DNA of 64,000 nt from Candidatus Parcubacteria bacterium (GTDB taxonomy: Bacteria; Patescibacteriota; Minisyncoccia; UBA6257; 2-01-FULL-56-20), in assembly GCA_027324805.1 (NCBI GenBank), contig DAHVRZ010000001.1, forward strand, positions 66,945 to 130,944, written 5' to 3'. Made by a program: the position numbers and the translations under genes. Of this stretch, positions 18,719 to 63,862 are shown piece by piece. How positions within the stretch are numbered: position 1 is the stretch's first letter; each line of letters starts with the position of its first letter. The notes below the pieces were generated by a model. The model was not told the origin of the DNA and ran no database searches. It saw only the letters and a list, made by a program, of their open reading frames with translations.

Positions 18719-18768
18719 ATCAGTATTATCGCATGAATCGAAGCGCTTAGCGAGAACCGAAATCGGGT

Positions 18769-19284
18769 TCAGCGATAGTCCACGCGCCGCGCCGCCTGCC
18801 GGTCACCGCTCACCCGCTGAAAGATCTGATAGTGTTCATTCATGCGTTTTTCTATGAACTCGCGGTCGGATGTTTTACTTGCCGGCTTGGTTCCTGTCTG
18901 GAGGTTCTCCCAGCTCTTATGGAGCGCCATGCCCGCGGCGATCGCTTCGAGGTTGATGCCGGAGGGCGCAGTGGCCGTCTTATGCACCGGAGAGGCCGTA
19001 TGGGGCATTTCCGCCTTCCATACATACGCCTGAGGCTTCCAATAATAGTTCGTGGCGGCCCTCAGTATTTTAATAAGCGGCTGGCCATTTATTTTAATGA
19101 ATGCCAGAGAGCCAGCCGTTCCCATAACGATAACGAATACGATAACAAAAAGCCATGTTTGCACAAAGAAATAGAAAAGCGCCGCGACGAATCCCGCGAT
19201 ACCAATATAAAGGAATTGGCGGAGCGAGAATGGCCCCACCACTTTATCCTCTGTTTCGATGAATTGGGGCACTTGGAACTGCAT
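18769..19284 (-). CDS. VirB3/PrgI-like small membrane protein
   Basis: N-terminal MQFQVPQFIETEDKVVGPFSLRQFLYIGIAG followed by two TM helices. Position immediately upstream of the VirB4-like gene, as in Gram-positive T4SS. Confidence 0.6.
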   Translation of the reverse strand: MQFQVPQFIETEDKVVGPFSLRQFLYIGIAGFVAALFYFFVQTWLFVIVFVIVMGTAGSLAFIKINGQPLIKILRAATNYYWKPQAYVWKAEMPHTASPVHKTATAPSGINLEAIAAGMALHKSWENLQTGTKPASKTSDREFIEKRMNEHYQIFQRVSGDRQAARRVDYR

Positions 19285-19287
19285 GCC

Positions 19288-20412: not shown

Positions 20413-20417
20413 GACTA

Positions 20418-22973
20418 TTAATCCTCGTCCTCATCTTTTTTATACTTCTTTGGACGAATACCGAACATTTCATTAAGATCCACCGCATCGCGGCCCGGAT
20501 TGTTCTTTATGTAACTGGCAAGGGTCTTATTGGAGCGTGCCAGTGACTGAATTTGTGCGAGGGTTTTTGCATCCATGCTTTGAGGCGCATCCTCGAAGTA
20601 TTTGAGGTTATTTTTTGTACCAAGTGATTTAAGAAGCTCTTTAGCGTTTTGCGGTGAAAGTCCCTCGGCCATTGCGGTTATGATCGATTGTTGCATATTC
20701 TTTACCGCGGCAGGATCGAACGTCAACGGCTTGTTTCTCTTGTCGCCGATCTTTATATCCTTATCAAATTTCGCGGAAGCTTTACTGAAGTCTTGGAACG
20801 AGTCTGCGACCAAGTCCGGATGGTCCTTGATCAACCTCTTTATTTTCCCGATATTTTCGTCGAACGTAAGCTTTGCCGTATCGTACTGGTCTTTCTCGAT
20901 ATTTGTTATGAAGGTATGGCCGGTCGGAGTGTTTTGAATTTCCCTAAGTGTCTTGATCTCGTCCTTTTCGGGATCAGTGAGTGCTCCTTTGCCTTCAAGT
21001 TTATTGAGTTCGTCGAGCCGATTTGAGTAGGCGTCAAACACTCCCTTCTCCGAGGGGCTAAGGGGTGTCCCACTCCCCCATTTTTCGTAAACATCTTTGA
21101 ATTCTTGCGCTTTTGCCTTATCGCCAAATTCCAATACAGTCTTTTCAGCATCTTTATTTTTCTCAGCCAGTTCGTGGATAGTAAGGCCAGACTGATCTTT
21201 GAGTTCCTCGTAAGATTTTTCTTGCTGCAAGTCCTTGAACTTACCCTCATTCTGCTTGAGGAAATCTTGGAAGTTCTGGCCATTCACGGTAAGTCCACCC
21301 AAACTACCGACGCCGGCGGCTTTCACGACGTCTTTACGAAGGTTTTCATCTTTGGAAAGTTTGTCGAGCACGGCCATCTGCTCTTCGTGACTCATAGCAC
21401 CGCGGCCCAACGTTCCGGATTTTTGCGCAAGCGCTCTCGCGAGTGCTGCAGGATCTTTCGCAAGATTTTCGGCATACTTTGCTTGTGCCGCAACCGTGTC
21501 GCCACGCCCCGCACGTTCAAGATTCCCCAACCCTACCCCTGTTGCAACCTGCAGGCGTTGAGGTATGAAGCGATACCCTCCCGATTGCAGTTTGTTCTTA
21601 ACGTCCTTAGGCACCATTCTCCCGGCAGCTTGCTTCGATTTTTTCCCTGCCCACGTTTTTACACCATTCCCTGCGCTTGTTATCGCGCCCGTTACGGCGC
21701 TTGCGCCTTTGATACCCATCGAATTAGCGGCGAAGAGCCCGCCAATGATAAGTCCCGCGAAAATGAGTTCCTGAAGTATGGCGGGAAGCAATTGGGATAA
21801 CGCGCCGGCAAAAAATCCGCTTAGTGCCGTGAATATTCCGCCGTTGTTGTACTGTTTTAGATCCAAACTGCCTACGCCCGTCGTTCCGTTCGATACCTGC
21901 ATAAGGAGCATCGAAAGATAGATGAAGAACAGCGCGATGGGAGCGAAGAATGACCACTGCAGGAACTTGCTCCACCATTTTTTCCAATGATTGCCGAAGA
22001 TCGGGAATACCCATGATGCCCATGCGAACGGCATGAGGATTGCGAGGATGGCTATGTAAATATATCGTATGAAAAGAAGCACAAGGAGCCCCCCGAGGAC
22101 AAGTACGATCAGGAGGAGGTTTGTCGCACCGAAGAGCACGCCCATGAGTGCGACAAGCTCCTTTCCATCATTTGCTCCAGTTGCGGCGAGCGCCCCACTT
22201 AGGCTGTTCAAGCCCTTACTCGAAAGTATATCGGTTTTATTATTGACGCTTCCGCCCGTCACAAATGAGAAGCTGTTCTGCGGCTGGAATGACCCAGCGA
22301 ATGTTGTCGCGAAATTATCCCAACTCTCGAAGCCGTTGAAGCTCTGACTGCATCCTCCGCCTGCCGGGTTGATGCAGTTCACGAAGTAGTGCGAGAACGA
22401 GTTCGACAGGCCGAAGATCGGCGCGGCGATCACAAGGCCGAAGTTGACGAGTACGGCGGCCACCACGAGCTTCCAAAGAAGCTTTTTAACGCCATAACTT
22501 TCGTTACGGATGATAGTCGCTATCGCGATCACGATGATGCCGAGTACGAAGGCGAGATTCGCAATGGAAAGCGCTATGGAAAAGCCGCTTTGTACGAATA
22601 CCGTTTGGAATATGCCATCGTTGATGTTGAGAATGACGCCGATAAGCCATGCTTCAAGCGCCACGATCACGCCCACCACGACCGCCATATCGTATATTGC
22701 AAGGAACGCGAGCGTGGTCACGAACCCTGACGTTACGTCGCCGAGCGCGCCGATGCCGGATGCGACCAAGCTTTTCGCCTTTTGGATAATGCCCGTGCCG
22801 CCGGATTGTGAGCCGCTACCGCCGGCGTTCCCAGACTGGCTGCCGCTTGTTTGGGTTTGTGCGTACACCGAGTGGGGAAGTACAGCGGCGACGGTGAATA
22901 GGACCGCGATGACGAGGCAAATGGAGGATACCACCCTCACCCATCCTTTTTTCCTGAAACCGTGAAGCGTCAT
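20418..22973 (-). CDS. VirB6/TrbL-like polytopic membrane protein with long C-terminal soluble domain
   Basis: Signal peptide, Gly/Ser-rich linker, ~8 TM helices, then a ~370-aa charged coiled-coil-like C-terminus. Confidence 0.6.
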   Translation of the reverse strand: MTLHGFRKKGWVRVVSSICLVIAVLFTVAAVLPHSVYAQTQTSGSQSGNAGGSGSQSGGTGIIQKAKSLVASGIGALGDVTSGFVTTLAFLAIYDMAVVVGVIVALEAWLIGVILNINDGIFQTVFVQSGFSIALSIANLAFVLGIIVIAIATIIRNESYGVKKLLWKLVVAAVLVNFGLVIAAPIFGLSNSFSHYFVNCINPAGGGCSQSFNGFESWDNFATTFAGSFQPQNSFSFVTGGSVNNKTDILSSKGLNSLSGALAATGANDGKELVALMGVLFGATNLLLIVLVLGGLLVLLFIRYIYIAILAILMPFAWASWVFPIFGNHWKKWWSKFLQWSFFAPIALFFIYLSMLLMQVSNGTTGVGSLDLKQYNNGGIFTALSGFFAGALSQLLPAILQELIFAGLIIGGLFAANSMGIKGASAVTGAITSAGNGVKTWAGKKSKQAAGRMVPKDVKNKLQSGGYRFIPQRLQVATGVGLGNLERAGRGDTVAAQAKYAENLAKDPAALARALAQKSGTLGRGAMSHEEQMAVLDKLSKDENLRKDVVKAAGVGSLGGLTVNGQNFQDFLKQNEGKFKDLQQEKSYEELKDQSGLTIHELAEKNKDAEKTVLEFGDKAKAQEFKDVYEKWGSGTPLSPSEKGVFDAYSNRLDELNKLEGKGALTDPEKDEIKTLREIQNTPTGHTFITNIEKDQYDTAKLTFDENIGKIKRLIKDHPDLVADSFQDFSKASAKFDKDIKIGDKRNKPLTFDPAAVKNMQQSIITAMAEGLSPQNAKELLKSLGTKNNLKYFEDAPQSMDAKTLAQIQSLARSNKTLASYIKNNPGRDAVDLNEMFGIRPKKYKKDEDED

Positions 22974-22975
22974 TG

Positions 22976-25216
22976 TTATTGCACGTCAACCTGGCAGGTT
23001 GCGGTGGTTTGGTCGGTGGATGCGGTGACAGTGACATAGTAGGTACCGGTTGCGGTATAGGTGGCGAAATATGAATCGCCGACACTCGGTGTACCGCTTG
23101 CGGCCTGCATCGATCCCGGCGCGGACCAGGTGTAGGTTGGCGTACCATCGCTGTTCGTTCCTGACGGGCAGCTGTTGTTCGCCGAGCAGGTTGTATCGAT
23201 CGCGCCTCCTGCCGCTGAGAAGCTTGCGATCGCCTGACTCGTAGATGCGTTGAAAATAGTCGATTGCTGTGCCGGGAGGCATTGGATGACAGTGGACGAG
23301 GTCGGCTGGGAAAGGGAAAGACTCGAAGATGATATACTACTCAGCCCATAAGCCCCGGACGGGACCGTCGAATTGTTGCCGTTCGTTATGTTGCTCAGTT
23401 CCTGCGTGGAAAGGTTTATCGCATTAGTGGCGAGCGTATTAAGGATGGAGCTGAGGAGCGCCTCCAGAATCCCTGTGATATTCTTCGCATTCGTGATATT
23501 GTCCAATCCGCCCTTGAGTACCGAGGTGAACGATTCCTTGGTGACATCGCTCGGGGATTTTATCTGCGGACTCGAACCGTCGGCGCATTTGCCGAGATTG
23601 GGGTTTGCGATCGCCTGTTCGGGGATCAGGTCGGGGCCCATATTACATGTCGGCGGGTTGGTGCTCGTGTCGAGTGTTCCCCCGTCGGGGCATGTGTATC
23701 CGACGCCATATGGGTTGCTATGGTCGCTACATGTGGCGACGCCCTTCCACCCGGTCGATGTATTCTGCGTGGTCTTCGCCTGTTGGCTGTTACTTCCCGC
23801 GATAAGCGCGGCATCGCGCGTCTGAATGGCGAGTGCCCACACGTTGCCGCCTGGCTGGAAGAGGGAGAGATAGTCGTTGAAGTTATTGAAGTTGTTGTAA
23901 AAATTCTGGAGATTATTACCGAGCTGTCCGTTGAATTCGGATTGGCAGATGTCGGCATTCGCCACGGACGGAGTCGAAAGCAGAGCCTGTACGAATGGGG
24001 CCTGATATGAAGGTACACATTTCATATATGTGCCTATTTCGGTTACCGCGGCGCTTGTGAAAGAGTTGACCATTTCCGAACCGAAGTCGGTGATGAACTG
24101 CGGCGCACCCGCGCCCTGGATCGCGGTGAGTACTTTTTGCTGGATGAGGTTGGTGAGCACGTTGATGAGAATCTGGAGGGCTATATCCTCGACATATTTT
24201 TCGATGGTTTTTCCGAGTTGGGCGGTCGTATTGAATTCCACGACAGGGTCGGTAACTGCGAGTTGTGCGTGCGCGACCGGTATCCCTACGAAATTATTTA
24301 TAAAGGCGAATACTCCCTGGTTATGGTTCGGAACGGGAAGCAATGATGTTTGGAAGGGATATTTTGCGGTCATCTTGCTCCATTCGCTTTCGAAATTGCC
24401 GACCGCGAGATCATACTTCGATTGTTCGTTCTGGAAGATGATAGATGCTTTCAAGGGATCATTTTGTGCGTTTCCAAGAAGCGCCACCATGTTTTTCTCG
24501 TACACCAGGAGCTTAATGAGGCTTTCTTGTGCGTTCATCAAGGAAGCGGGCGTGGGGATCGCTGCGGCTGTTTGCAGCATCTCTTGAATCTGCGCTTCGA
24601 CCGCTGCCGCGGAACTCGGATCTTCCTGGCCGAGAACCCCTCCTATGCTGCTGTTTGCAATGTATTTTTGATAGATGGCATTGAACGACGATTCATAATT
24701 ATTGATGTTTGCAGGAGTATCGCTTGTAGTAACGATTTTTACCTGCGCCACTTGCGCGTCCCAATTGGGTGCTTGGAAATTTTGGAATACAGGATCTGCG
24801 GCGAGCGACTGGGCGATCGCTTGGGTGTTCGGCGAATTGAATATAGTGCCGCCGCTACTGTCGGTGATGGCGCCCTGGGGGTTCGCTGCCGTAAAGCCGT
24901 TAATGAACGATTCCGCGAAGGTGTTGGTAAGGTTGGTGGGATCGTTCGCGGCGACGATGGTTGCCGATGGAACATTCATTTCGCTGAGAATCTCAGCTGC
25001 GTTCCCTTGGAGCGAACCGGTATCTACGAATGCATTGTTGCCGAACACCGGGACCGTTCCCGTTGCGTCGCCTCCTATCCCCGTGATCGTCGGGCCTTCC
25101 GCCACTGACGGAGCGCCCGTCGGATTGGCTCCGACATACGCAAGGATCAGTCCGGAAAAGACCGCTGCGACCGCGAGAACCAGAAATCCGGAGATCAACT
25201 TCTTGACATCGATCAT
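22976..25216 (-). CDS. large secreted surface protein (first gene of operon), Cys-containing C-terminal beta domain
   Basis: N-terminal TM/signal. 746 aa, Asn/Gln/Thr-rich. The C-terminus YTWSAPGS...TYYVTVTAS looks Ig/PKD-like. Confidence 0.55.
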   Translation of the reverse strand: MIDVKKLISGFLVLAVAAVFSGLILAYVGANPTGAPSVAEGPTITGIGGDATGTVPVFGNNAFVDTGSLQGNAAEILSEMNVPSATIVAANDPTNLTNTFAESFINGFTAANPQGAITDSSGGTIFNSPNTQAIAQSLAADPVFQNFQAPNWDAQVAQVKIVTTSDTPANINNYESSFNAIYQKYIANSSIGGVLGQEDPSSAAAVEAQIQEMLQTAAAIPTPASLMNAQESLIKLLVYEKNMVALLGNAQNDPLKASIIFQNEQSKYDLAVGNFESEWSKMTAKYPFQTSLLPVPNHNQGVFAFINNFVGIPVAHAQLAVTDPVVEFNTTAQLGKTIEKYVEDIALQILINVLTNLIQQKVLTAIQGAGAPQFITDFGSEMVNSFTSAAVTEIGTYMKCVPSYQAPFVQALLSTPSVANADICQSEFNGQLGNNLQNFYNNFNNFNDYLSLFQPGGNVWALAIQTRDAALIAGSNSQQAKTTQNTSTGWKGVATCSDHSNPYGVGYTCPDGGTLDTSTNPPTCNMGPDLIPEQAIANPNLGKCADGSSPQIKSPSDVTKESFTSVLKGGLDNITNAKNITGILEALLSSILNTLATNAINLSTQELSNITNGNNSTVPSGAYGLSSISSSSLSLSQPTSSTVIQCLPAQQSTIFNASTSQAIASFSAAGGAIDTTCSANNSCPSGTNSDGTPTYTWSAPGSMQAASGTPSVGDSYFATYTATGTYYVTVTASTDQTTATCQVDVQ

Positions 25217-25291: not shown

Positions 25292-26083
25292 TCAGAAGAG
25301 TGCTTCCGCGATGCGGGATATCTGTTCCACGGAAAGGTTCTGGGGCCTTTGGGTTGGAAGTATGCCATCACCCAAAAGGCTTATTTTCGCCGTCGATGCT
25401 TCTTTGGACATGCCGCCTTTTTCCAACTCCGCGGCAATATTGTTTCCTAATGTCTTGCGTGGCTGGGAAAATATGGCGCGAACCGCCCGATAATATTTCC
25501 CCTCCTTATCCATTACGCCCCGGTTTTTTCTTTTAAGCAAGATGACCGCCGACTCCACCTCCGGTGGAGGCGAAAAATCGCTGCGAGGGACGGTGGTGAC
25601 GATTTCTGGGTCGGACCAGAATTGAACGCTCGCCGCTAGGCGGTTCATACGCGGCGGCCGGGCGCATATTCTTTCCGCAACTTCGCGCTGTATCATGAAT
25701 ACGCACCGCTCCGGCTTTTGGGATGCTTCGCTTATGATGCGCAGCAGATGACCGGTGATGTAATAAGGAAGGTTGCCGGTGAGCTTTATAGGCCCCCTCT
25801 CTGTACGTGACAGTATTTCACCGATGACTTCGAGCGCATCCCCTGGCGTGACATCCGCTACACCCTCCAATTTTCCGGCAAGGCTCGTTGCGAGGCGATC
25901 GTCTTTTTCAATGACCGATAGCGCCGCGCCCGCGGCGGTGCATGCGTCGAGCAGTGGAAAGGTGAGCTCGCCGTGTCCCGGCCCGATCTCAATAATCCGA
26001 TCGTTGCGGGAGACTTCGATCGTATCAACGATGCGTTTCACGATACGCTCGTTTTTTAAAAAATGCTGTCCAAGTCTTCTCAT
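25292..26083 (-). CDS. rsmA: 16S rRNA (adenine1518/1519-N6)-dimethyltransferase
   Basis: MRRLGQHFLKNERIVKRIVD...IIEIGPGHGELT is the KsgA signature. Confidence 0.92.
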   Translation of the reverse strand: MRRLGQHFLKNERIVKRIVDTIEVSRNDRIIEIGPGHGELTFPLLDACTAAGAALSVIEKDDRLATSLAGKLEGVADVTPGDALEVIGEILSRTERGPIKLTGNLPYYITGHLLRIISEASQKPERCVFMIQREVAERICARPPRMNRLAASVQFWSDPEIVTTVPRSDFSPPPEVESAVILLKRKNRGVMDKEGKYYRAVRAIFSQPRKTLGNNIAAELEKGGMSKEASTAKISLLGDGILPTQRPQNLSVEQISRIAEALF

Positions 26084-54845: not shown

Positions 54846-56156
54846 ATGCCCACCAAACTTACCCAGCGTCAGATCATAATCATCGCCATCGTTGCGCTTG
54901 TTGTGATCGCCGGCCTTGCGATTTTCATTCTCAATCTTCGTTCAAGCACCAGCGGCTATTCGGCGCAGAACCTCACGATCTGGGGAACCGACGATCCGAA
55001 GGCGTTCAATGATATGATCGCAAAATATACGGGTCCTGGCTCCGGCACGCAGACGAGCATCAAATATACGCAGATCAGTGCCGCGAACTATCAAAACCAA
55101 GTACTCAGCGCGATTGCTGCGGGCAACGGGCCCGATGTTTTTGAAATAGGCAATCGCGACCTCCCGCAGTGGAAGAACGTGCTGTTGCCCGTCCCAACCA
55201 ACTTCGCATCGACTTTCAATCTTACGACCCTCGGCCAGGATTTTCCCGATGTGGTTTCCCGTGACTTCGTCTCGGGCGGATATATCTATGCACTTCCGCT
55301 TTCCGTGGACACGCTTGCGATGATCTACAACAAAGACCTTTTGAATACGGCAGGCATTGCGACGCTGCCAAAAACATGGAGCCAGTTCGACGGTGATATT
55401 CCACTCTTGCGGCAGGAGAATTCCGCCGGACAGATCACACAAGCCGCTGCGGCGCTCGGCGGTTCGGCAGCGAGTATCGGAAATGCATCCGATATTGTAT
55501 TTCTTATGATGCTTCAGAATGGTACGCAAATGCTTTCGAGCGACGGTTCGTCGGTAGCCTTCGCTTCCACGGGAGGAACGTCCGCGGCGGCAGGACAGAA
55601 CGCATTCGATTTCTATCTTCAATTCTCAAGCGCCTCGTCGCCTTACTATACCTGGAATGACAGTATGGGTAATGCTCTCGATGCCTTCGCTCAAGGTAAG
55701 GTCGCTATCATTTTTGATTATTCGTCAGCGCTCGCTTCCATCAAGGCAAAATCGCCGTTCCTCAATTATGGAGTGGCGGCCATGCCGCAGGCCGACAATG
55801 CGACGGCGGCGGTGAATTATGCGAAGTATAACGGGCTCGCGGTGAATAAGAACAGCGCGAATGCCCTCGCGGCATGGCAATTTGTCATCGGCTTGACCAC
55901 AAATGCCACCGATGAGAACATTTATACATCGGACACCGGCGCCCCTCCCGCGCTCCGGAGCGTGATAGCCGCCGACATGACCGATCCCGTGATGTCCGTG
56001 TTTGCATCGCAGGCCCTTACGGCGAAATCGTGGTATGAGTCGAACAGCGCGAAGATCAGCGATGCCGTTGATACCGCCATTACACAAGTACTCGACGGTT
56101 CCGCCGATTCGACGACGGCGCTCAGTGAGGCACAGTCCCAGATCAACGGAGGCTGA
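54846..56156 (+). CDS. ABC-transporter-type extracellular solute-binding protein (family 1-like), orphan
   Basis: N-terminal TM/signal, then ~410 aa matching the sugar-type SBP size and pattern. No permease or ATPase nearby. Confidence 0.6.
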   Translation: MPTKLTQRQIIIIAIVALVVIAGLAIFILNLRSSTSGYSAQNLTIWGTDDPKAFNDMIAKYTGPGSGTQTSIKYTQISAANYQNQVLSAIAAGNGPDVFEIGNRDLPQWKNVLLPVPTNFASTFNLTTLGQDFPDVVSRDFVSGGYIYALPLSVDTLAMIYNKDLLNTAGIATLPKTWSQFDGDIPLLRQENSAGQITQAAAALGGSAASIGNASDIVFLMMLQNGTQMLSSDGSSVAFASTGGTSAAAGQNAFDFYLQFSSASSPYYTWNDSMGNALDAFAQGKVAIIFDYSSALASIKAKSPFLNYGVAAMPQADNATAAVNYAKYNGLAVNKNSANALAAWQFVIGLTTNATDENIYTSDTGAPPALRSVIAADMTDPVMSVFASQALTAKSWYESNSAKISDAVDTAITQVLDGSADSTTALSEAQSQINGG

Positions 56157-56160
56157 TCGG

Positions 56161-56673
56161 ATGTCCATTATTCCCCCCATGAATCGTTTCCTCAACAATC
56201 TTCGCATCAAGGCCGCTTCCCGTTTTACATTCTTCCTGCTTTCTGCCGCGGTGGCGGTTGCCATTCCCTTTGTGGCATCGGCAACGGTGACCGCGCCGGA
56301 CATCTGGGCGATGCCCCCGGGGTATTGGGGTCCCATCGTATCGTGTACGGGGAATTATCCCATCGGCACCGGCACCACGTTGCCGGCGGGAGCGCTCCCG
56401 AATTGCACGAACCTGGACGATCTTCTTCAGACGGTCGTTAACACAATCTACCTTATAATGTCGGCGGGACTTTTCGTTATTGCCCCGATACTTTTCATCA
56501 TCGGCGGTATTATGATGATCATCTCGAGCGGTAATCCCGAAAAGATCGGCACGGCGCGGAAGACAATGATCGGTGCGGTTGTCGGCGTCGTTATCGTGCT
56601 TTGCTCCTATCTCATCGTGAATACTATAATTTCAGTGTTCCATATCACCGGGGTCGCAGGATTCGGTTCTTGA
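56161..56673 (+). CDS. VirB2/TrbC-like T4SS pilin-family protein
   Basis: RBS GGAGG. Signal/TM segment. Core motif ...FIIGGIMMIISSGNPEKIGTARKTMIGAVVGVVIVL (hydrophobic helix - G[ND]PEK - basic - hydrophobic helix). Confidence 0.65.
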   Translation: MSIIPPMNRFLNNLRIKAASRFTFFLLSAAVAVAIPFVASATVTAPDIWAMPPGYWGPIVSCTGNYPIGTGTTLPAGALPNCTNLDDLLQTVVNTIYLIMSAGLFVIAPILFIIGGIMMIISSGNPEKIGTARKTMIGAVVGVVIVLCSYLIVNTIISVFHITGVAGFGS

Positions 56674-56685
56674 CCGCATGAGATC

Positions 56686-57594
56686 ATGAAGAATACTTTT
56701 GCAATCATCTCGCTTTCATTATTCCTCGGTGCGACGGGGATTGCCGTGCTTTCGTTCTTTATGCCGGTACCGCTTCATGCGCAAGTGCAGATATCCGCTT
56801 CCATCCCCGGGCAGTACGCCACGACCGCCACCTCTTCTCCCTCCGCCTTTGTCGCAAACTTCTACCAATATGCATTGTCCGTCGCCGGTATCCTTGCTTT
56901 CGGCATCATCGTCTATGGAGGGGTGAAATATATGGCTTCGGTGGGGAACCCCTCGGGCCAGAGCGATGCGAAAGAATGGATCAAGGCTGCCATTATGGGC
57001 ATCCTTCTCCTTGCAGGATCCTATATGATCCTCTATATCATCAATCCCGGACTTGTGAACCTTTCACTGCCCAACAGTCTTGAATCGGTGGGTCAACAGG
57101 CGTCGCAGACGGGATTTGCGGGGAGTTCGGGGACGCCGACGGGAAAGTGCACACCTCCGACGAATGGGCCGTGTACGGCAGCATCGCTCAGCCAGTACAG
57201 CTGTCTTGGAAATTCAACGCTTGCCGGCGGTGTATGTAACGTCGAGAGCAGTGGCAACGCCGCGGCGGGAGGCGACCTTTCCACGAACCCCGGCCCCAAT
57301 GGGCGGAACCTTCCCGCATCGGTCGGACTCTTCCAGATCAATCTTTCCGCGAATACCATTCCCGCCAACTGCAAACCCGGTTCGTCAGGATGCCTTAATT
57401 GCCCTGCGGCGTTCACCAATCCCTACACCGGCTCCAATCCGCATACCTCCATCAAAGATATGAATCTCTATAAACAATGCGTTGCGGCGGCCGAGACTGT
57501 CTCCACCAACGTCCAGGAAGCCTGTCAGCTTTCCAAGAACGGCACGAACTGGAGTCTTTGGGGTCCCGCCACAAGAAAAGCGTGCGGTATATAA
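56686..57594 (+). CDS. pilin-like N-terminal domain fused to C-terminal lytic-transglycosylase (SLT-like) Cys-rich domain
   Basis: N-terminal 110 aa are paralogous (mature part identical) to the gene at 14290-14694. The C-terminus has E-S...GLFQI (NVESSGNAAAGG...ASVGLFQINLS), reminiscent of the SLT catalytic motif, and 10 Cys. Confidence 0.6.
   Translation: MKNTFAIISLSLFLGATGIAVLSFFMPVPLHAQVQISASIPGQYATTATSSPSAFVANFYQYALSVAGILAFGIIVYGGVKYMASVGNPSGQSDAKEWIKAAIMGILLLAGSYMILYIINPGLVNLSLPNSLESVGQQASQTGFAGSSGTPTGKCTPPTNGPCTAASLSQYSCLGNSTLAGGVCNVESSGNAAAGGDLSTNPGPNGRNLPASVGLFQINLSANTIPANCKPGSSGCLNCPAAFTNPYTGSNPHTSIKDMNLYKQCVAAAETVSTNVQEACQLSKNGTNWSLWGPATRKACGI
56791..57022. repeat. copy B of the ~230-bp near-identical pilin-gene segment
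   Basis: See copy A. Encodes ISASIPGQYATT...AIMGILLLAG in both genes. Confidence 0.85.
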
Positions 57595-57604
57595 TACTTG
57601 AGAC

Positions 57605-58159
57605 ATGAAAAAAGCGCTTATCATAGTACTCGTCATCATCGTGATCGCTGCCGCCGCGGCCGGTGTTGTTTTCTTTATGAGGCAGCAGGGAAGCCCTTCC
57701 GGCAGTTCGGGGACCGGCACTATTCCCTTTGGTACGACCACGCCTACCGGGGCCTATTCATCTTCAACCGGAACCGGCAATGTGGTAACTTCTTCGGCGC
57801 CGGGGAGTGGGAGCAGTACCATCACTATCGGGACGAGCCGCGGCACTGTCACCCTGAACAATTTCTATAGCACCGCTGCGTATACCACCCAGGACGGCCA
57901 GACTGTGGTCCTCCAGGATCAGGCGGATTATCAGATCGTCTATAACGTTTCCGACAGCAGTTTTATTATTTCCATACTTGCGACGCCGCTCGAAGCGAAC
58001 CGCGAGGCGGCTGAGGCTGCATTCCTTGCCCAACTCGGGATATCCCAGGCTGACGCCTGTAAGCTTAAAGTGAGTGAAGGCGTGCCGATCGGTGTTTCCG
58101 ACCAATATCCCGGCGTGAATTTCCCGCTGAGTTTCTGCGGGAATTCCACACCCATGTAG
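57605..58159 (+). CDS. membrane-anchored secreted hypothetical protein
   Basis: N-terminal TM segment, Ser/Gly/Thr linker, then a beta-rich domain. Confidence 0.55.
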   Translation: MKKALIIVLVIIVIAAAAAGVVFFMRQQGSPSGSSGTGTIPFGTTTPTGAYSSSTGTGNVVTSSAPGSGSSTITIGTSRGTVTLNNFYSTAAYTTQDGQTVVLQDQADYQIVYNVSDSSFIISILATPLEANREAAEAAFLAQLGISQADACKLKVSEGVPIGVSDQYPGVNFPLSFCGNSTPM

Positions 58160-58185
58160 GATGGTTTATCTGCTATAATAGAACA

Positions 58186-58584
58186 ATGAAACGCGCTTAT
58201 CGAATGGTCGCCGGAGCTGGAGCGGCATTCGGTTCTTTCCTGGTGCTTGCGGCAACGGCAATGGCTTCGACATTAACCGGTGGAAGTTCTTCGGGCGGTT
58301 CCGGATCGTCGGGGGGGAGCGTTTCCCTCATTAACCCACTCAATACCACAAGCTTTCCGACAGTGGTTAATAATGTCATCGCTTTCCTTTCCACAGATGT
58401 CGCAATCCCGCTTACGGTGATAATGGTCCTTATTGGTGCATTCCAGATGATGACCTCGAGCGGAGAGCCGGAGAAATTCGGCAAAGCGAGGAAGACGCTT
58501 ACGTACGCCGCCATAGGACTTGCGGTGGCGCTTATTGCAACCGGCATCACATCCATCATCCAGAGCGTCCTGAATGGTTCGTAG
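58186..58584 (+). CDS. VirB2/TrbC-like T4SS pilin-family protein
   Basis: Signal peptide. Core motif ...VIMVLIGAFQMMTSSGEPEKFGKARKTLTYAAIGLAVALIATG. Confidence 0.65.
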   Translation: MKRAYRMVAGAGAAFGSFLVLAATAMASTLTGGSSSGGSGSSGGSVSLINPLNTTSFPTVVNNVIAFLSTDVAIPLTVIMVLIGAFQMMTSSGEPEKFGKARKTLTYAAIGLAVALIATGITSIIQSVLNGS

Positions 58585-58661
58585 CGGCCGTGGCGGGATG
58601 GACAATTCCCCAAAAGCGTGCGACGATTATTCCAACAAACGGTCGAAAAATCACCCTTACT

Positions 58662-59102
58662 ATGATTAAGAAATTCATCGATCGGGTCCCGGGGATATTG
58701 CTCACCGTAATGCTAGCCGTTTCGGGCGGATTGTTCGCCGTGTACAGTCTCAATGTCGCGGATGCACAATCGTCGCCGGTCTACGACAAGGCAAGCCTTA
58801 TGGCGTTTCTTTGCAATATCATCTCCTGGATGATCATGATTTTGTTCGCGGTTGCGATTATCATGATCGTCATGGCAGCGTTCCAGTACGTTACCGCCGG
58901 AGATGACACTGAAAAAACCTCGAAAGCAAGGAGAACGCTCACTTATTCGGCAATCGGTATCGCGGTGGCCCTCATTGCATACGGATTCCCTGCCATCGTA
59001 TCGAGCGTGATCCCCGGAAGTCCCTCAGTGAGTGCGTTCAATTGCTCGGTTTCGACCGGCAGCAGTTCCGGCGGAAGCAGCTCGGGTCTTGTCTCCACGT
59101 GA
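58662..59102 (+). CDS. VirB2/TrbC-like T4SS pilin-family protein
   Basis: Core motif ...AVAIIMIVMAAFQYVTAGDDTEKTSKARRTLTYSAIGIAVALIAYG. The ORF-track start at 58590 is probably too long. Confidence 0.6.
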   Translation: MIKKFIDRVPGILLTVMLAVSGGLFAVYSLNVADAQSSPVYDKASLMAFLCNIISWMIMILFAVAIIMIVMAAFQYVTAGDDTEKTSKARRTLTYSAIGIAVALIAYGFPAIVSSVIPGSPSVSAFNCSVSTGSSSGGSSSGLVST

Positions 59103-59172
59103 TTTTGCTAGGAGAATCGGTTCATGGTAGCCTTATGAAGTAACTTCGAAAGGTCGATATCCTTTTATCCTT

Positions 59173-59568
59173 ATGAACAAAGTAATCAACTTTGCGAAGA
59201 AGATCGGTCCGACGGCGATATCGTTCGTGGTTCCGGCGCTCGCGTTCGCGCAGGGCATTCAGGCTCCGGCGCCCGGCGTTGGTGCGGGCAACGTCCCTAC
59301 GGCCAACATCACGAGCCTTCAGTCGATCCTGAACGACCTCTGTATCGTGTTTGCGTGGGCGTTCTACTTCCTTATCGTCGTTGCCATCATCTTCGTTATC
59401 GTCGCGGCATTCAAGTACCTTACTGCCGGTGGTGAACCCGAGAAGGTGAAGAGCGCGGGTGCAACCCTCCTTTATGCTGCGGTTGCGATCGGTGTTGCGC
59501 TTCTCGCGAAAGCCATTCCGCTCGTTGTCGGCAACTTCCTCGGTGCCGGAACGGTCACGTCCTGCTAG
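59173..59568 (+). CDS. VirB2/TrbC-like T4SS pilin-family protein
   Basis: Signal peptide MNKVINFAKKIGPTAISFVVPALAFAQG. Core motif ...VIVAAFKYLTAGGEPEKVKSAGATLLYAAVAIGVALLA. Confidence 0.65.
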   Translation: MNKVINFAKKIGPTAISFVVPALAFAQGIQAPAPGVGAGNVPTANITSLQSILNDLCIVFAWAFYFLIVVAIIFVIVAAFKYLTAGGEPEKVKSAGATLLYAAVAIGVALLAKAIPLVVGNFLGAGTVTSC

Positions 59569-61034
59569 GAGCAGACCGATCGTTTGGTATGAGATCCCAA
59601 TATCCCGCAGTAATGCGGGATTTTGGTTTGTTTATAAAATCGGAAACCATCCCTATATAAAAAATTCCCCGACGGCGCATGATGCGAACCGTCGGGGGTC
59701 GAATCTTTCTTTGATCCAATAAGGATATCAGAAAGTGTAAATGTTCCCGACATCTCGTCTCTCCAGTAGTAATAGAGGACGAACTTGTCGATTTGCTGCG
59801 AGGAGCCGGCACTTTCGTCAATGAACCTTGCCGTGAAGTTCACACTGGTTCCTGACGGTATGGTACCGTGCCAGTTCGTTCCGAAGCTCATGCCTCCATG
59901 CATCACGGGCGTTGCGTAACCATTGTAGTACGCCATGCCGTGTTCCTGCAGGCTGAGAACTCCGTCGCGCGCGCTGTTGTTGGTGATCGTACCGTTCACT
60001 TCGATCACCGTACCCGTCGCGCGCGAGGCGCACGCCGAGATGGTGAGTTGTCCGCTCGTACTCGACGTACAGTCGCGCCCGATCGGTGCGGGTGTGCTCG
60101 GTACCGGCGCTTGTGGGGCGTTCGATTGCGATGATCCGCTTTCTCCCGAACCCTGCGAGCTTTGGCCAGTGTCACCGCTACCGTTGTTTCCGTTACCTCC
60201 TGTTTCCGTGCCGCCGCCGCCATCCAATTGTTTCACGGATAACTTAGCGGGACCTGGTTTTGAGATATGGACCTTCGGTTGTTCTTCACTGTTGGCTCTT
60301 GCCGCGGCGAGGAGGTTATGAAAACGGAAGCCGCCTGCATAACATGCGAAGATGAACATCGTTGCAGCGGCCCAGACGGGAAATTTTTTAAGTTTCCTTC
60401 TGGTTCCCCGCGTCTTTATCCATCCCGCTTTCGTTGCCTTATAGACTTTTTTCGTCATCTGCCAGATGAAGAGGGGGGCGGCGATCAGGCAGATTCCGCC
60501 TATGCGCTTGCCGATGCGCCCCATCCGAATCCCGGCGGAGGCGCAAGCGTGTGCTGCAGCGGCGATGCCTTTCTTCGCTTTCGAGGCCGTGCTTCCAATG
60601 ACTCCCCATACTCTGCCAAACCATGACCTTTTCGGTTTGGGCGCGGCTTCCTTGCGGAAATCGCGATCCCAATCCTTTACGGGTAACGGCAGTATGACGG
60701 GGATGGCGCGCGCTTTCTGTTTTGATTGCTGCGACGAGTGGTGCTGTGCCGCTACTTTTATGCGGTTATTCCACTCCGCCATGCGCCCGTCGGGGAAAAC
60801 GATGAATGAGACTTTTCCCTTTTTGACGTAGATCTTGGATGGCACATCCGCGCCTTCCTTGATCCGGATCGTTGCGGCTACGACATATTCGTTCCTGTCG
60901 TCGCCGGCTTGGGCCTTCACGAAATCCTCAACTTCCTTCCGGGAGGTTGGGGAAGACGGGAGGTTTGCATCGGCATCCTTCTCATAACGGTTCATTGCTT
61001 CTCCTCTCTTGTTCGCGATGATATCTTTCCCCAT
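59565..61034 (-). CDS. hypothetical membrane protein with Gly/Ser-rich linker and C-terminal beta domain
   Basis: 489-aa ORF with internal TM segments (ICLIAAPLFIW, AATMFIFACYAGG) and a GGGGTETGGNGNNGSG linker. Confidence 0.5.
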   Translation of the reverse strand: MGKDIIANKRGEAMNRYEKDADANLPSSPTSRKEVEDFVKAQAGDDRNEYVVAATIRIKEGADVPSKIYVKKGKVSFIVFPDGRMAEWNNRIKVAAQHHSSQQSKQKARAIPVILPLPVKDWDRDFRKEAAPKPKRSWFGRVWGVIGSTASKAKKGIAAAAHACASAGIRMGRIGKRIGGICLIAAPLFIWQMTKKVYKATKAGWIKTRGTRRKLKKFPVWAAATMFIFACYAGGFRFHNLLAAARANSEEQPKVHISKPGPAKLSVKQLDGGGGTETGGNGNNGSGDTGQSSQGSGESGSSQSNAPQAPVPSTPAPIGRDCTSSTSGQLTISACASRATGTVIEVNGTITNNSARDGVLSLQEHGMAYYNGYATPVMHGGMSFGTNWHGTIPSGTSVNFTARFIDESAGSSQQIDKFVLYYYWRDEMSGTFTLSDILIGSKKDSTPDGSHHAPSGNFLYRDGFRFYKQTKIPHYCGILGSHTKRSVCS

Positions 61035-61159
61035 TCCCCGGAAGGGGGATATAGGCTATCTATATTAATAGCATACTTTACTGATTTTGTCAATATATCC
61101 CGGGCAAAAAGAATGGCCCCAGCGATGATCCGCTGAGGCCTAAAAATAATGCAATTGCG

Positions 61160-62002
61160 CTACTTGGTTGATTCGGTGAAATCTTCGGTGATGGTGAGGG
61201 TTCCCTGCCCTTCTATCCCGATTTTCTGTTCCCCTTTAAGGATACCGCCGAGGTTTCCATCCTGATGCGGTTCCCAGCGGATCACCTTGCTCACCTCACC
61301 ATCCTTGCCCTTTACGGCGATCCAGTCGTCCGGACCGCCGAGCGTGGACTGTATCCATGTGTGAGGAGGAAGGTAGATGGGCCCATGGATGCAGCCGGCG
61401 GCGAGCGTGATGGTCGCCGGAAGCTGCAGGTAGGTGGGTTCCGTGTTGCCGCAGGTCAGAACGCTGTATCCCTGCGGCAGGTTCTCGATCGTCGTTTTCG
61501 CGTACGCATCCTTCGCGAATATGAAGGTAAAGTATGCGATCGCGAGGACCGCTCCCCACCGGATCGCTTTATGCGTCGTTAATGCGGCGATGAAAAATAT
61601 GAGTGTGAGAAGGGCCACATAGCGGGGTTCGATGGGAACCCATGCCAGGTAAACCCCCAGGAGCATTTCGAATGTGAGGATCCCGCGCAGGACGTTGATC
61701 GCCTTGCGCGCTTCCGCCTTGCGGGCATGTGCGACGAGCGCAATCCCCACAGTTCCGAAGCCGAGAATCCTCGAATCCATCCTGAGCGTAATTTCCAGGA
61801 GGGCTACCAGCGGGACCAGTGCCACGATTGGCATGACCACGAGCGCGTTCCGGTGAGGGACCGCCATGGCGCAGACCATCATCACAATCGGCCAGCCGAT
61901 CGCTATTGCGAGGGCGATCTTGATCGCACGTCCGAGCGCGAGGGCCCCTGCGGAGGTGACGGTGTCAATTACACGAAGCAAACCTCTAAACCAGTTTCCC
62001 AT
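61160..62002 (-). CDS. polytopic membrane protein, unknown function
   Basis: ~6 TM helices. Periplasmic C-terminal segment. Confidence 0.5.
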   Translation of the reverse strand: MGNWFRGLLRVIDTVTSAGALALGRAIKIALAIAIGWPIVMMVCAMAVPHRNALVVMPIVALVPLVALLEITLRMDSRILGFGTVGIALVAHARKAEARKAINVLRGILTFEMLLGVYLAWVPIEPRYVALLTLIFFIAALTTHKAIRWGAVLAIAYFTFIFAKDAYAKTTIENLPQGYSVLTCGNTEPTYLQLPATITLAAGCIHGPIYLPPHTWIQSTLGGPDDWIAVKGKDGEVSKVIRWEPHQDGNLGGILKGEQKIGIEGQGTLTITEDFTESTK

Positions 62003-62027
62003 ATCGATTCCTTTCCTCGGCCGTTCG

Positions 62028-62741
62028 TCACTTCAGCCACTTGCTGAAGAGTCCCGGACCCAGTTTGCCGTCGAGTCTGTCGGCGGCGTTGTTGATCTGA
62101 GAAGCCTGGCGTTCAGCGGCTTCGTTGATGCGTGCCGCTTGATCGGCGATACGGTGGCCTCCTGCAACGATGCGGTCTCTGGTTGCCCTCATGAGATTGG
62201 GCATGTGCTTCTCCCATTTCTCCTGAATGAACCCGCCCGTTGCTTTGGCGTTGTCCCAAAACCACTTTACGACCTGCTGTGCGACGTCGTTGTCGAGGGT
62301 ATACATTCTATCCTCGAAATCTTTGTCGCTCAGCGAGTTCAGGTGTTTGAGGATATCCTTGCGCTTGTCGGCTTTATCCTCAAGGTCGTCGGTTGCGAGA
62401 CACAGAAGGAACACGAGATTGTGCTCCGTGAATCCTTCCTTCGCCTTGCGGAGCCGCTCCCTGAGATTCCTTGTGTCATTCGTGGTGAACGTTCCGTTCT
62501 GCCACTCTAATTCATCGAGATCGCGGAAGAGCCTCCTTCTCGCGACCTTGAACCTGTTTTTCATCTCCGTGACGAAAATTTCGACGATCGCCTGGCTGCC
62601 GCCGGTGGTCGCCGAGTCCGTCATTTTGCGAAAGAACTTCTTCAGGAGACCTTCTTCTGCTTGTGCTGCTGCAGCGGTTGCTGCGGCATTTGGTTGGACG
62701 CCAGCCATGCCTTTCACCTCGTTTCCAAGTAGATTTTTCAA
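62028..62741 (-). CDS. hypothetical protein
   Basis: 237-aa charged helical ORF with no recognisable motif. Confidence 0.5.
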   Translation of the reverse strand: MKNLLGNEVKGMAGVQPNAAATAAAAQAEEGLLKKFFRKMTDSATTGGSQAIVEIFVTEMKNRFKVARRRLFRDLDELEWQNGTFTTNDTRNLRERLRKAKEGFTEHNLVFLLCLATDDLEDKADKRKDILKHLNSLSDKDFEDRMYTLDNDVAQQVVKWFWDNAKATGGFIQEKWEKHMPNLMRATRDRIVAGGHRIADQAARINEAAERQASQINNAADRLDGKLGPGLFSKWLK

Positions 62742-62828: not shown

Positions 62829-62909
62829 GCTGGGGTGGCGAAATGGCAGACGCACCGGCTTTAGGAGCCGGCGCCGCAAGGCGTGTGGGTTCAAGTCCCA
62901 CCCCCAGCA
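62829..62909 (+). tRNA. tRNA-Leu (anticodon UAG), long variable arm
   Basis: GCTGGGG TG GCG AAATGGCAGA CGC A CCGGC TTTAGGA GCCGG CGCCGCAAGGCGT GTGGG TTCAAGT CCCAC CCCCAGC A. A TTGTCA...TACTAT promoter lies upstream. Confidence 0.85.
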
Positions 62910-62911
62910 CC

Positions 62912-63862
62912 TTATTTTTGAGCGTTCCTGTCGTGGAACTTTTCGTGCACCTCACGAAGCTGTTTGTTCGTGAGGTGGGTGTAGATCTGCGTGGTCGCAA
63001 TGTTCGCGTGTCCGAGGAGTTCCTGCACGGAGCGAAGATCGGCGCCGTTTATGAGAAGGTCGGTCGCAAAGCTGTGGCGGAGAAGATGGGCATGGATGCG
63101 TTCGGGAATACCGGCTTCTTTCGCGCGGCGTTCGACGATGCGCTGGACGGCCCGGTGGGTGATCGGGCCGATCACTTTATCCTTCCTGTCCAAACTGACG
63201 AATAGTTTCTCTTCCGGATCTGTGCGTTTATCGAGATATGCTTTGATCGCGTCCCGTGCGCGGTCGGAGATGAAGACGACGCGCAGTTTGTCGCCTTTTC
63301 CCCGTACGGAGATCTCGCCGCGCTTCCAGTCGGCGTAGCGCGAGAGCGAACAGAGCTCGGCGAGGCGGAGACCGGTCGAAAAGAACGTCTCGAGGATCGC
63401 GCTGTCCCGCAGATCACGGAGCAAGGGGCTGCGCTTCTTTGCGGCCGCCGACGCGAGGGGTGCTTCAAGGAGCCTCACGAGGTCTTCCGGCCTGATCGTT
63501 TCGATCTGGCGCGAGCCGGCCTTCGGCAGCTCTATCTTTTCGGCGGCGAGCGTTTCCACGTCGCGCTTGCGCAGGAACTTGAGGAAGTTGCGGATCGCGA
63601 TCACATAATAGCCCTGCGTGACCTTTTTAAGCCCTTGTTCGTCGAGCGAATTGCGGAAATCGCTTACAAGGTCAATCGTGATGTTCGCGGGGGATTTTAT
63701 CTTCGTGAATGCGAGGAATTTCGAAAGGCAGCGCTCGTAATTCTCACGCGTTTTACGCGAACGGTTCTTTTCGATCGTGAGATAATTAAGGTAGGTACGA
63801 ACCCAGCGCTCGAGCTCGGTCGTTGGCGCGGATCCCTCCTCCTTTTCTTTTGTTGCGGCCAT
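62912..63862 (-). CDS. tyrosine-type site-specific recombinase (XerC/XerD family)
   Basis: Catalytic region HLLRHSFATDLLINGADLRSVQELLGHANIATTQIYTHL (R..H-R-H..Y). N-terminal core-binding domain. The stop is 3 nt from the tRNA-Leu 3' end. Confidence 0.85.
   Translation of the reverse strand: MAATKEKEEGSAPTTELERWVRTYLNYLTIEKNRSRKTRENYERCLSKFLAFTKIKSPANITIDLVSDFRNSLDEQGLKKVTQGYYVIAIRNFLKFLRKRDVETLAAEKIELPKAGSRQIETIRPEDLVRLLEAPLASAAAKKRSPLLRDLRDSAILETFFSTGLRLAELCSLSRYADWKRGEISVRGKGDKLRVVFISDRARDAIKAYLDKRTDPEEKLFVSLDRKDKVIGPITHRAVQRIVERRAKEAGIPERIHAHLLRHSFATDLLINGADLRSVQELLGHANIATTQIYTHLTNKQLREVHEKFHDRNAQK

Follow-up and report, generated by a model that had tools for sequence, protein, structure and literature searches.

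One of the five VirB2-like pilin paralogues encoded in the window, by which we mean the whole 64,000-nucleotide stretch of DNA analysed here, is predicted to combine a pilin module and, beyond a flexible linker, a lysozyme-like domain that would hydrolyse peptidoglycan outside the cytoplasm. Comparison with related genomes indicates that gene conversion has repeatedly homogenised the pilin module of this protein, p2, with the T4SS operon's own pilin, p0, and that the C-terminal domain of p2 and the adjacent gene x3 have been exchanged together between lineages, while the pilins have not. The five paralogues themselves are VirB2-like subunits of long standing that are not interchangeable, and each has orthologues of its own throughout the clade.

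Organization of the pilin array

The conserved block opens with a gene for a membrane-anchored solute-binding protein (SBP; SBP_bac_1, PF01547 E = 1.2e-30; 54846-56156, plus strand), which ends 4 nt before p1. The six array genes follow on the plus strand: p1 (56161-56673, 170 aa), p2 (56686-57594, 302 aa), x3 (57605-58159, 184 aa), p4 (58186-58584, 132 aa), p5 (58662-59102, 146 aa from ATG) and p6 (59173-59568, 131 aa). The mechanical ORF of p5 begins earlier, at GTG 58590. The five pilin ORFs lie where the initial annotation had placed them, and all of them exceed the Pfam gathering cut-off for T4SS_pilin (PF18895, 26.6 bits), with scores of 34.5 (p1), 32.6 (p2), 36.1 (p4), 34.6 (p5) and 30.4 bits (p6). 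The proposed kinship with the operon pilin was also borne out, as p0 passes the same model (37.6 bits) and belongs to the same family. The match to VirB2/TrbC held for PF18895 and for the VirB2-like topology, but not for the TrbC/VirB2 model PF04956 (gathering cut-off 27.9 bits), to which p4 scored best at 17.5 bits and p1 12.9 bits, the other pilins being unreported by the search; the array proteins resemble VirB2 yet are not PF04956 members by that model.

Hydropathy gave the expected topology for each array pilin, including p1: an N-terminal hydrophobic signal-like segment with a small-residue motif at its end (in p6 just under the cut-off used), followed by two hydrophobic helices. The loop motif that had been quoted is present. 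The common architecture was thus upheld, but the description of all five as small ORFs was not, since p2 carries approximately 150 extra C-terminal residues, which form its lysozyme-like domain. The gene in their midst had been called a secreted non-pilin protein; x3 is indeed extracytoplasmic and not a pilin, but its N-terminus looks like an uncleaved transmembrane anchor (type II) instead of a typical signal peptide.

Array members are mutually 25-55% identical at the protein level, and an HMM built from the six pilins (p0 and the array) found no additional copy within the 64-kb window. The intergenic gaps are short (10-77 nt) and a single terminator-like hairpin with a T-rich tail (59602-59621, plus strand; 8 pairs, 5 G-C; a consensus match only) lies directly 3' of p6, suggesting that the genes are co-transcribed.

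Conservation across related genomes

Related genomes, labelled Paceibacterota, Parcubacteria or Minisyncoccia, were compared using the genomic context of the orthologues' loci. The order gyrA-SBP-p1-p2-x3-p4-p5-(p5')-p6 is kept in all 16 related arrays, and in each of these every paralogue has an orthologue at the same position with best matches in the same class. The best matches of p1 are the first-position genes of other arrays, p4 likewise has positional orthologues elsewhere, and x3 is conserved within the array. The last gene, p6, encodes the most conserved pilin paralogue, being 86-93% identical to its counterparts in the closest relatives and 98% identical to that on one metagenome contig. 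As had been proposed for a check among relatives, copy number does vary: some relatives carry a sixth array pilin, the p5 class being present twice there.

Across genomes, the identity of the pilins follows that of GyrA (r = 0.58-0.79), as does that of the SBP (r = 0.91), which sits between gyrA and p1 in every related locus; it is a constant neighbour of the array and not the "orphan" it had been taken for. The pilins diverge fast, however: GyrA is 95% identical between the window and the genome clean996, yet p1 is 47%, p4 51% and p5 60% identical.

p2 combines a pilin module with a predicted hydrolase domain

The p2 protein comprises a signal (residues 1-33), a pilin hairpin (~34-125), a disordered Gly/Ser/Thr/Pro-rich linker (~128-150) and a Cys-rich SLT_3 domain (~151-302). 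AlphaFold2 predicts the hairpin helices at residues 52-84 and 89-119 with a pLDDT of 84-93. The match of p2 itself to PF18896 (SLT_3) is below the gathering cut-off of 27 bits (23.7 bits, E = 7e-5); a match at E <= 0.01 is found in 41 of 47 p2 orthologues, the best at 1.1e-9. Orthologue comparison revealed an invariant Glu-Ser, a GLFQIN motif and 8 Cys in the C-terminal domain, which has a predicted lysozyme fold with the catalytic Glu of Glu-Ser and the GLxQ motif.

Gene conversion between p0 and p2

The T4SS operon (13032-25216, minus strand) is of monoderm type and origin-proximal, being flanked by dnaA, dnaN, yidC and ksgA; it was identified by Pfam matches and by synteny in 13 related loci. 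Its PrgI/VirB3 gene (18769-19284, minus strand) and VirB4, split into two ORFs (18014-18718 and 16264-18039, minus strand), were both recognised by Pfam and adjoin p0 (14290-14694, minus strand), an arrangement kept in these 13 loci; every related operon has p0 downstream of VirB4. The array is separated from this operon by 42 kb.

A 257-nt tract within p2 (56791-57047, plus strand) is 97% identical to a segment of p0 (14360-14616, minus strand) in inverted orientation, and the pair is the sole repeat of at least 40 nt in the window. Of the 8 mismatches, 5 affect third codon positions. Both copies are inside one contig, and with 8 differences between them an assembly artefact was rejected as the source of this repeat. 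The p0/p2 tracts are 96-99% identical over 175-272 nt in 5 of 11 genomes, the window included, although two of these five pairs are located at contig ends (L008/L013 and L027/L028), where the assembler may have shaped the sequence. DNA identity is 72-83% in the remaining genomes, with mismatches mostly at third codon positions. As high-identity tracts occur in four further genomes, and at least one of these, clean384, has boundaries that differ from those in the window, the conversion appears to recur.

In the phylogenetic tree, the p0 and p2 modules cluster by genome in five genomes, a set that differs slightly from the five with high DNA identity: WH2.bin17 pairs cluster at only 77% protein identity, and those of clean384 do not cluster because the tract is shifted. 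For the same reason the protein-level figure for clean384 (87%) is an underestimate and the DNA comparison was used instead. Recurrent conversion of the hairpin provides evidence, at the level of sequence, consistent with a common assembly interface for p0 and p2; conversion between similar sequences can also be neutral, and so does not prove co-assembly.

Exchange of the p2 C-terminal domain and x3

At least four C-terminal domain types (A to D, with B in two subtypes) are found behind one pilin module at the p2 position, with one more type in L045/L046; the additions range from hydrolase-like domains to Cys-rich tails. The four closest genomes (GyrA 91-95%) already contain three unrelated types plus a divergent A in WH2.bin17, and exchange of the hydrolase domain and x3 is seen between genomes with 94-98% GyrA identity. 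The x3 proteins of all domain types are homologous (27-84% identity), and their identity has no correlation with that of GyrA (r = -0.03); sharing the p2 domain type, by contrast, raises it by 19 points (permutation p about 2e-4). These comparisons show x3 following the p2 domain type and not how closely the genomes are related; inheritance is vertical for the pilins and the SBP. The co-variation may reflect physical linkage in one recombination tract and not functional partnership.

The type D domain has weak PHROG endolysin matches (E = 5e-4). An assignment of type B as LAS/M15-peptidase-like, suggested by an H-x-x-G-x-A/C-x-D...H motif, was unsupported and remains a motif reading: the domain has no match in Pfam, PHROGs or PDB, a profile search returned only 8 homologues, none annotated with a catalytic family, and hhalign gave a probability of 0.3% against the VanY-like P0063, which itself scores 19.5 bits against VanY, below the 25-bit threshold.

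Proposed role and alternative explanations

We consider it probable that SBP-p1-p2-x3-p4-p5-p6 is a conserved accessory-pilin operon of the Paceibacteria-type (Patescibacteria) T4SS. All six pilin-family proteins would leave the cytoplasm through Sec, undergo cleavage and sit in the membrane as two-helix hairpins, both termini facing outwards, from where the VirB4/VirB3/VirB6-like machine would draw subunits into a pilus or pilus-like channel built on p0. Because it has the same hairpin as p0, p2 would join the p0 assembly and thus bring a hydrolase of the cell wall to the T4SS site or onto the fibre, in a VirB1-like role that may consist of opening the cell's own wall, that of the host, or both. 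The products of p1, p4, p5 and p6 would be minor or specialised subunits (base, tip or adaptor). For the hydrolase domain, x3 would be a cognate partner that serves as inhibitor/immunity protein or as assembly factor. That the array does not adjoin the T4SS operon was counted against an accessory-pilin function. No T4SS pilus is reported for Patescibacteria in the literature consulted (PMC12857230), and "pilin" is accordingly a family name here and not an observation.

In an unlikely alternative, the array proteins are not fibre subunits but membrane hairpins in, or anchoring, the channel of a pilus-less monoderm T4SS, and the p2 hairpin serves only to hold in the membrane a VirB1-like hydrolase with which the cell opens its own wall. 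Gram-positive T4SSs are devoid of pili and employ membrane-anchored hydrolases (PMC12102498, PMC12857230), a single module bears the many C-terminal additions described above, and there is a sub-threshold likeness to the Mycoplasma ICE "pilin-like conjugal transfer protein" NF045849. A simple anchor, however, leaves the repeated conversion of the hairpin to p0 identity unexplained and makes five extra conserved paralogues hard to account for, and PF18895 is weakly similar to TrbC/VirB2, albeit with sub-threshold scores. The initial annotation had instead suggested pilus subunit diversification, such as antigenic or host-range variation, which would make the paralogues alternative major subunits, with different copies expressed or recombined to alter the pilus surface, an idea also raised for Patescibacteria arrays by analogy with Bartonella and Anaplasma (PMC12102498). 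The pilins evolve far faster than housekeeping genes, as in clean996, and the p5 class is duplicated in some genomes; we nevertheless judge such variation improbable, since strict positional orthology in 16/16 arrays and vertical inheritance of every class are combined with low identity between the paralogues and an absence of shared DNA repeats able to support cassette recombination. The apparent co-transcription and the essentiality of the Southlakia pilin series (PMC10633639) argue against it as well.

The annotation had also described the block as an island; a genomic island would have been acquired horizontally and integrated near tRNA-Leu by the adjacent tyrosine recombinase. Both the tRNA-Leu (62829-62911) and the recombinase (62912-63862) are within 4 kb of the block. 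The GC content of the block (0.53-0.56) equals that of its surroundings, a repeat search of the window found no flanking repeats, and no close relative lacking the block and carrying an empty tRNA attachment site was found among the related genomes. The recombinase is no sign of an island either, being Xer-like (XerC 236 bits and XerD 231 bits, both under the equivalog cut-offs; the archaeal XerA-type model passes its cut-off) and syntenic, together with the block and its gyrA/SBP flank, in relatives down to 78% GyrA identity. On synteny and composition we rejected a mobile island, which has hardly any probability left.

Building on the accessory-pilin operon, we put forward more tentatively, and with some doubt, that the p2 domain and x3 constitute a horizontally exchanged effector-plus-partner cassette, carried on a pilin hairpin that conversion keeps matched to the main T4SS pilin, and that the whole could be a polymorphic pilus-displayed cell-wall hydrolase system.

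Comparison with known systems

VirB2-like arrays are already known from Patescibacteria, with 441 arrays of 2-11 genes in 383 assemblies, some of them with a single non-pilin gene in between (Quinonero-Coronel et al. 2025, PMC12102498), and a pilin series in Ca. Southlakia epibionticum that is essential by Tn-seq (Wang et al. 2023, PMC10633639; also PMC12857230), so the number of paralogues is not as unusual as had been claimed. Such arrays were defined as at least two VirB2-like genes in tandem or one non-pilin gene apart in a genome with VirB4 (PMC12102498); the window contains five PF18895 genes with one intervening gene, as well as VirB4 and PrgI. The low mutual identity and the monoderm-type, origin-proximal VirB4/PrgI T4SS without outer-membrane components are further likenesses. 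Unlike in those arrays, the genes here are fixed beside gyrA and the SBP gene, with 42 kb between them and the T4SS operon, one member fuses a pilin to a hydrolase and has a hairpin converted against the operon pilin, and the C-terminal domain of the fusion is exchanged between lineages along with the next gene. Neither the separation, the converted fusion nor the exchange is described in PMC12102498, PMC10633639 or PMC12857230.

With the TrbC/VirB2 and TraA pilins of diderm T4SSs (PF04956), the proteins share a long signal peptide, two hydrophobic helices, a short charged loop and a genetic link to a VirB4 ATPase; they differ in their sub-threshold PF04956 scores, in the monoderm host and in the presence of six paralogues, with no VirB5 recognised, instead of one major pilin plus VirB5. 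The p2 C-terminal domain resembles VirB1-type hydrolases (VirB1 and the Gram-positive TraG, PrgK and TcpG with SLT and CHAP) in its lysozyme/lytic-transglycosylase-like character, Glu-Ser, GLxQ and tie to a T4SS, and the peptidase-like motifs or weak peptidase/endolysin matches of the relatives' alternative domains recall the Gram-positive mix of SLT and CHAP. In contrast to these, it is fused to a pilin hairpin and not to a plain transmembrane anchor, and its gene is not part of the T4SS operon.

Polymorphic effector-immunity systems (CdiA-CT/CdiI, Rhs, LXG) likewise pair a conserved N-terminal part for delivery with a C-terminal enzymatic domain that varies, and the gene directly downstream co-varies; here too unrelated domains stand behind one N-terminal part while the downstream gene co-varies. 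In those systems immunity proteins for different folds are unrelated, whereas x3 is one family across all types, which is unusual for immunity proteins and was counted against such a role; orphan domain/x3 cassettes were not found among the related genomes examined. The antibacterial X-Tfe/X-Tfi pairs of Xanthomonas (PMC6536674, PMC10933484) offer a parallel in T4SS-delivered cell-wall hydrolases with envelope-located immunity proteins, although toxicity and protection are putative here and a pilin takes the place of a secretion signal such as XVIPCD as the delivery part. Pilin variation in Neisseria (pilE/pilS) and VirB2 variation in Bartonella and Anaplasma differ from this array, whose members show positional orthology and vertical inheritance and share no conserved DNA segments with each other.

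Biological implications

The array itself is one more case of the catalogued Patescibacteria VirB2-like arrays and adds little to them. The new part is the hydrolase-plus-partner cassette, not described in the literature searched: in this clade a predicted cell-wall hydrolase is hidden in a gene that scores as a pilin, and the conversion between p0 and the p2 hairpin suggests a concrete way in which the T4SS of a monoderm could bear an enzyme on its fibre or next to it. If the cassette does function as proposed, it could let epibiotic Patescibacteria break through the wall of their own particular host or use that wall as food; x3 would shield or direct the enzyme, and sugars set free might be bound by the solute-binding protein, whose gene is co-transcribed. 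Since the domain and x3 are exchanged even between very closely related genomes, they would be the components with the best claim to determining host specificity in these uncultured epibionts, for which interaction with the host is the key question.

Array genes and their genomic setting

Six plus-strand genes with gaps of only 10–77 nt occupy 56161–59568: the pilin genes p1 (56161–56673), p2 (56686–57594), p4 (58186–58584), p5 (58662–59102) and p6 (59173–59568), and x3 (57605–58159), a non-pilin gene between p2 and p4. All five pilins match Pfam PF18895 T4SS_pilin (30.4–36.1 bits; gathering cut-off 26.6); none reaches the threshold of PF04956, the classical TrbC/VirB2 model. Hydropathy analysis gave each two hydrophobic helices and a signal-like N-terminal segment, the one in p6 lying slightly under the cut-off used. 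The pilin of the T4SS operon, p0 (14290–14694, minus strand), is a further family member (PF18895, 37.6 bits), and a search with an HMM built from all six pilins found no additional copy within the window. These scores, the topology, the shared family of p0 and the HMM search together establish a real pilin array rather than a chance pattern. All six pilins also have sub-threshold scores (16–27 bits; cut-off 40) against NCBIfam NF045849 (“Mbov_0395 family pilin-like conjugal transfer protein”, Mycoplasma ICEs), which hints at VirB2-like hairpins in other monoderm T4SSs of MPF-FATA type.

Metagenome-assembled genomes (MAGs) labelled Paceibacterota, Parcubacteria or Minisyncoccia, all Patescibacteria/CPR, supply the closest proteins and loci. 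One contig (L035, CAYPRN010000001.1) labelled “uncultured Gammaproteobacteria” has match statistics identical to those of a Falkowbacteria contig (L034) and may be mis-binned from Patescibacteria. The T4SS operon of the window is of monoderm type, with PrgI/VirB3 and VirB4, and is flanked by dnaN, dnaA, a low-GC stretch (0.35–0.41), yidC and ksgA (8501–12457 and 25292–26083). The low-GC stretch beside the operon probably contains oriC; this arrangement agrees with the origin-proximal position published for Patescibacteria T4SSs (PMC12102498). Two overlapping minus-strand ORFs encode VirB4, one of 234 aa (18014–18718) and one of 591 aa (16264–18039). Every related T4SS locus contains matches to the two parts, separate and in this order, so the split appears to be conserved rather than caused by a sequencing frameshift.

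Six pilin paralogues had been considered unusual, which does not hold for Patescibacteria: 383 assemblies yielded 441 arrays, each with 2–11 VirB2-like genes in tandem or with one non-pilin gene between, at approximately 25% mean identity among members (PMC12102498). The Southlakia T4SS cluster includes a pilin series essential by Tn-seq (PMC10633639), described in a FEMS review as a pilin array with six divergent VirB2-like pilins (PMC12857230).

Conservation of the array and its surroundings

In the complete arrays compared, the best match of each gene among the window pilins was the gene at the same position (16/16), and where six pilins were present the extra gene was a duplicate of the p5 class. 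Between-genome identity of p1, the p2 hairpin module, p4, p5 and p6 correlates with that of GyrA (r = 0.58–0.79). Within one genome the paralogues are 25–55% identical or undetectable by BLAST, and a repeat comparison of the window found no DNA repeats common to the array paralogues. The pilins evolve fast (p1 is 47% identical to that of the related genome clean996, while GyrA is 95% identical); p6 is the most constrained, at 86–93% in the closest relatives. The initial annotation had suggested that the pilus subunits diversify, for example for antigenic or host-range variation, a reading that we no longer regard as serious given the positional orthology, the correlation with GyrA and the lack of DNA repeats between paralogues; the comparison fits distinct subunits in a fixed complement rather than interchangeable variants.

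Nor do we take seriously that the array is a mobile island; the initial annotation had called it an island beside an “orphan” solute-binding protein, a tRNA-Leu and a tyrosine recombinase. Four contigs retrieved via p2 orthologues, 12 array loci of representative genomes and further metagenome contigs were compared, and all carry the same block, in the order Lactamase_B_3, small ORF, gyrA, SBP (the membrane-anchored solute-binding protein gene), p1, p2, x3 and then three or four pilins; its GC content is unremarkable. Only 4 nt separate SBP from p1, and SBP diverges in step with GyrA (r = 0.91), making it a fixed member of the block rather than an orphan. The recombinase scores 236 bits with the XerC model and 231 bits with the XerD model, both under the equivalog cut-offs, and passes the cut-off of an archaeal XerA-type model; a Xer-type recombinase also lies a few kb downstream of the block in most related loci. 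Judged by these scores, the window recombinase is Xer-like, unlike a typical island integrase.

Four metagenome contigs with GyrA identity of 55–56% (L062, L063, L065, L066) have two to four small PF18895-like genes approximately 600 nt or less after gyrA, without SBP, p2 or x3, and the gyrA–pilin linkage seems far older than the full block. Convergent to the array, on the minus strand at 59565–62741, are three genes (489, 280 and 237 aa) without a Pfam family, 56–81% identical in the closest relative and mostly undetectable further out; the first overlaps the p6 stop codon and includes a terminator-like hairpin.

A pilin–hydrolase fusion and its putative partner gene

The product of p2 continues beyond its hairpin with a disordered Gly/Ser/Thr/Pro-rich linker and a Cys-rich, lysozyme-like domain of approximately 150 residues. 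This domain (type A) matches PF18896 SLT_3 in 41 of 47 p2 orthologues, the window protein falling slightly under threshold (23.7 bits; threshold 27). Glu187-Ser188, an SxGLFQIN motif and eight cysteines are invariant. The AlphaFold2 model of the domain is confident (pLDDT >90), and neither Foldseek nor sequence search found a match in the PDB. Both termini of VirB2 and TraA face outward; by analogy the C-terminal domain of p2 would be extracytoplasmic, in agreement with its conserved cysteines. Cys-rich C-terminal tails of 50–140 residues, forming several unrelated sequence clusters, also follow the pilin module in proteins of other genomes (P0061, P0067, P0072, P0075, P0093 and others). The confirmed operon pilin of clean384 (L011) has such a tail; the window p0 has a short tail only.

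The p2 domain is 74% identical in clean384 (GyrA 83%), and no counterpart was detectable in the two closest genomes, clean996 (GyrA 95%) and BP9.bin97 (GyrA 94%). In relatives the same hairpin and linker are followed by other domains: a Cys-rich type B in two subtypes (invariant E..PP..H....H..GC..D...EY...H), type C in clean996, type D with weak phage-endolysin matches in MFD01223, a VanY-like domain under threshold in the related protein P0063 and a further type in L045/L046. Only type A can be securely assigned as a wall hydrolase; type B failed every test run as a peptidase.

Identity of x3 between genomes is uncorrelated with that of GyrA (r = −0.03) and is 19 points higher where two genomes share the p2 domain type (permutation p ~2e-4), an effect absent in the flanking SBP and pilins. 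MFD01112 and SPRUCE130 (p2 types B2 and A; GyrA 98%, SBP 87%) share 42% identity in x3, and binchicken598 and MFD00082 (both B1; GyrA 79%, SBP 51%) share 77%. In these sequence comparisons x3 follows the p2 domain type, and the two behave as a swapped cassette, whose breakpoints we expect within the p2 linker and between x3 and p4. The product of x3 combines a membrane anchor at its N-terminus with a low-complexity linker and a beta/alpha domain that is predicted well and has two invariant cysteines; searches assigned x3 to no family or fold.

Gene conversion between p0 and p2

Only one long repeat occurs in the window: p0 (14360–14616) and p2 (56791–57047) share 257 nt in inverted orientation at 97% identity, spanning the mature hairpin and leaving both signal peptides and both tails outside. 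Eleven genomes yielded both loci. DNA identity between p0 and p2 is 96.9% in the window (257 nt), 96.0% in BP7.bin39 (272 nt), 96.0% in MAG_CO256 (252 nt), 99.4% in SMAG_U14814 (175 nt, truncated at a contig end) and 99.2% in clean384 (256 nt), where the tract boundaries differ from those of the window. The copies in MAG_CO256 and SMAG_U14814 lie at contig ends, as expected from a true repeat at assembly, yet are two less clean cases. The other six genomes show 72–83%, with mismatches mostly at third codon positions. Across genomes the modules have a mean identity of merely 61–77%, and a tree places the p0 module beside the p2 module of the same genome in five cases. That separate lineages show near-identity even at synonymous positions, and that the boundaries differ in at least one of them, means repeated gene conversion beyond purifying selection alone. 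In two MAGs (L008/L013 and L027/L028) the p0 and p2 contigs both end within the common pilin module, and contig breaks may hide the repeat in many draft genomes.

Between the inverted tracts lies a 42-kb segment that includes the T4SS operon and gyrA. If the tracts recombined, this segment would be inverted and the operon would come to lie directly upstream of the hydrolase domain, x3, p4, p5 and p6; the mature proteins would scarcely be altered, since the exchange would affect no more than the signal peptides and a few residues that differ. Of four related contigs that carry both loci, three have them in inverted orientation and one, OY970358.1 (identity 72%), in direct orientation.

Proposed role of the array

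The data show the family and topology of the pilins, the operon structure, the positional orthology, the lysozyme-like domain, the conversion tracts and how the cassette behaves; beyond these, we propose that the six hairpins are Sec substrates put together by the VirB4 machine. Having the same hairpin as p0, p2 would enter the p0-based assembly, so that its wall hydrolase would sit at the T4SS or on the fibre and serve as the VirB1 that a published survey failed to detect in most of these genomes. The pilins p1, p4, p5 and p6 may be specialised minor subunits, and x3 may be the cognate partner to the enzymatic domain. The hydrolase would act on the wall of the cell itself or on that of the host; given the domain exchange between near-identical genomes, we lean towards a host-facing target. 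The only rival to assembled pilins that we still consider serious is that the hairpins serve just as membrane components in a system lacking a pilus.

The initial annotation identified a real pilin array correctly, overrating its rarity and misreading its setting; the array itself is a further case of the published Patescibacteria arrays. The literature searched makes no mention of a hydrolase tethered to a pilin, of gene conversion between this fusion and the operon pilin or of a hydrolase–x3 cassette. Based here on 16–30 loci and one confidently assigned domain type, these three features merit a proper comparative study.
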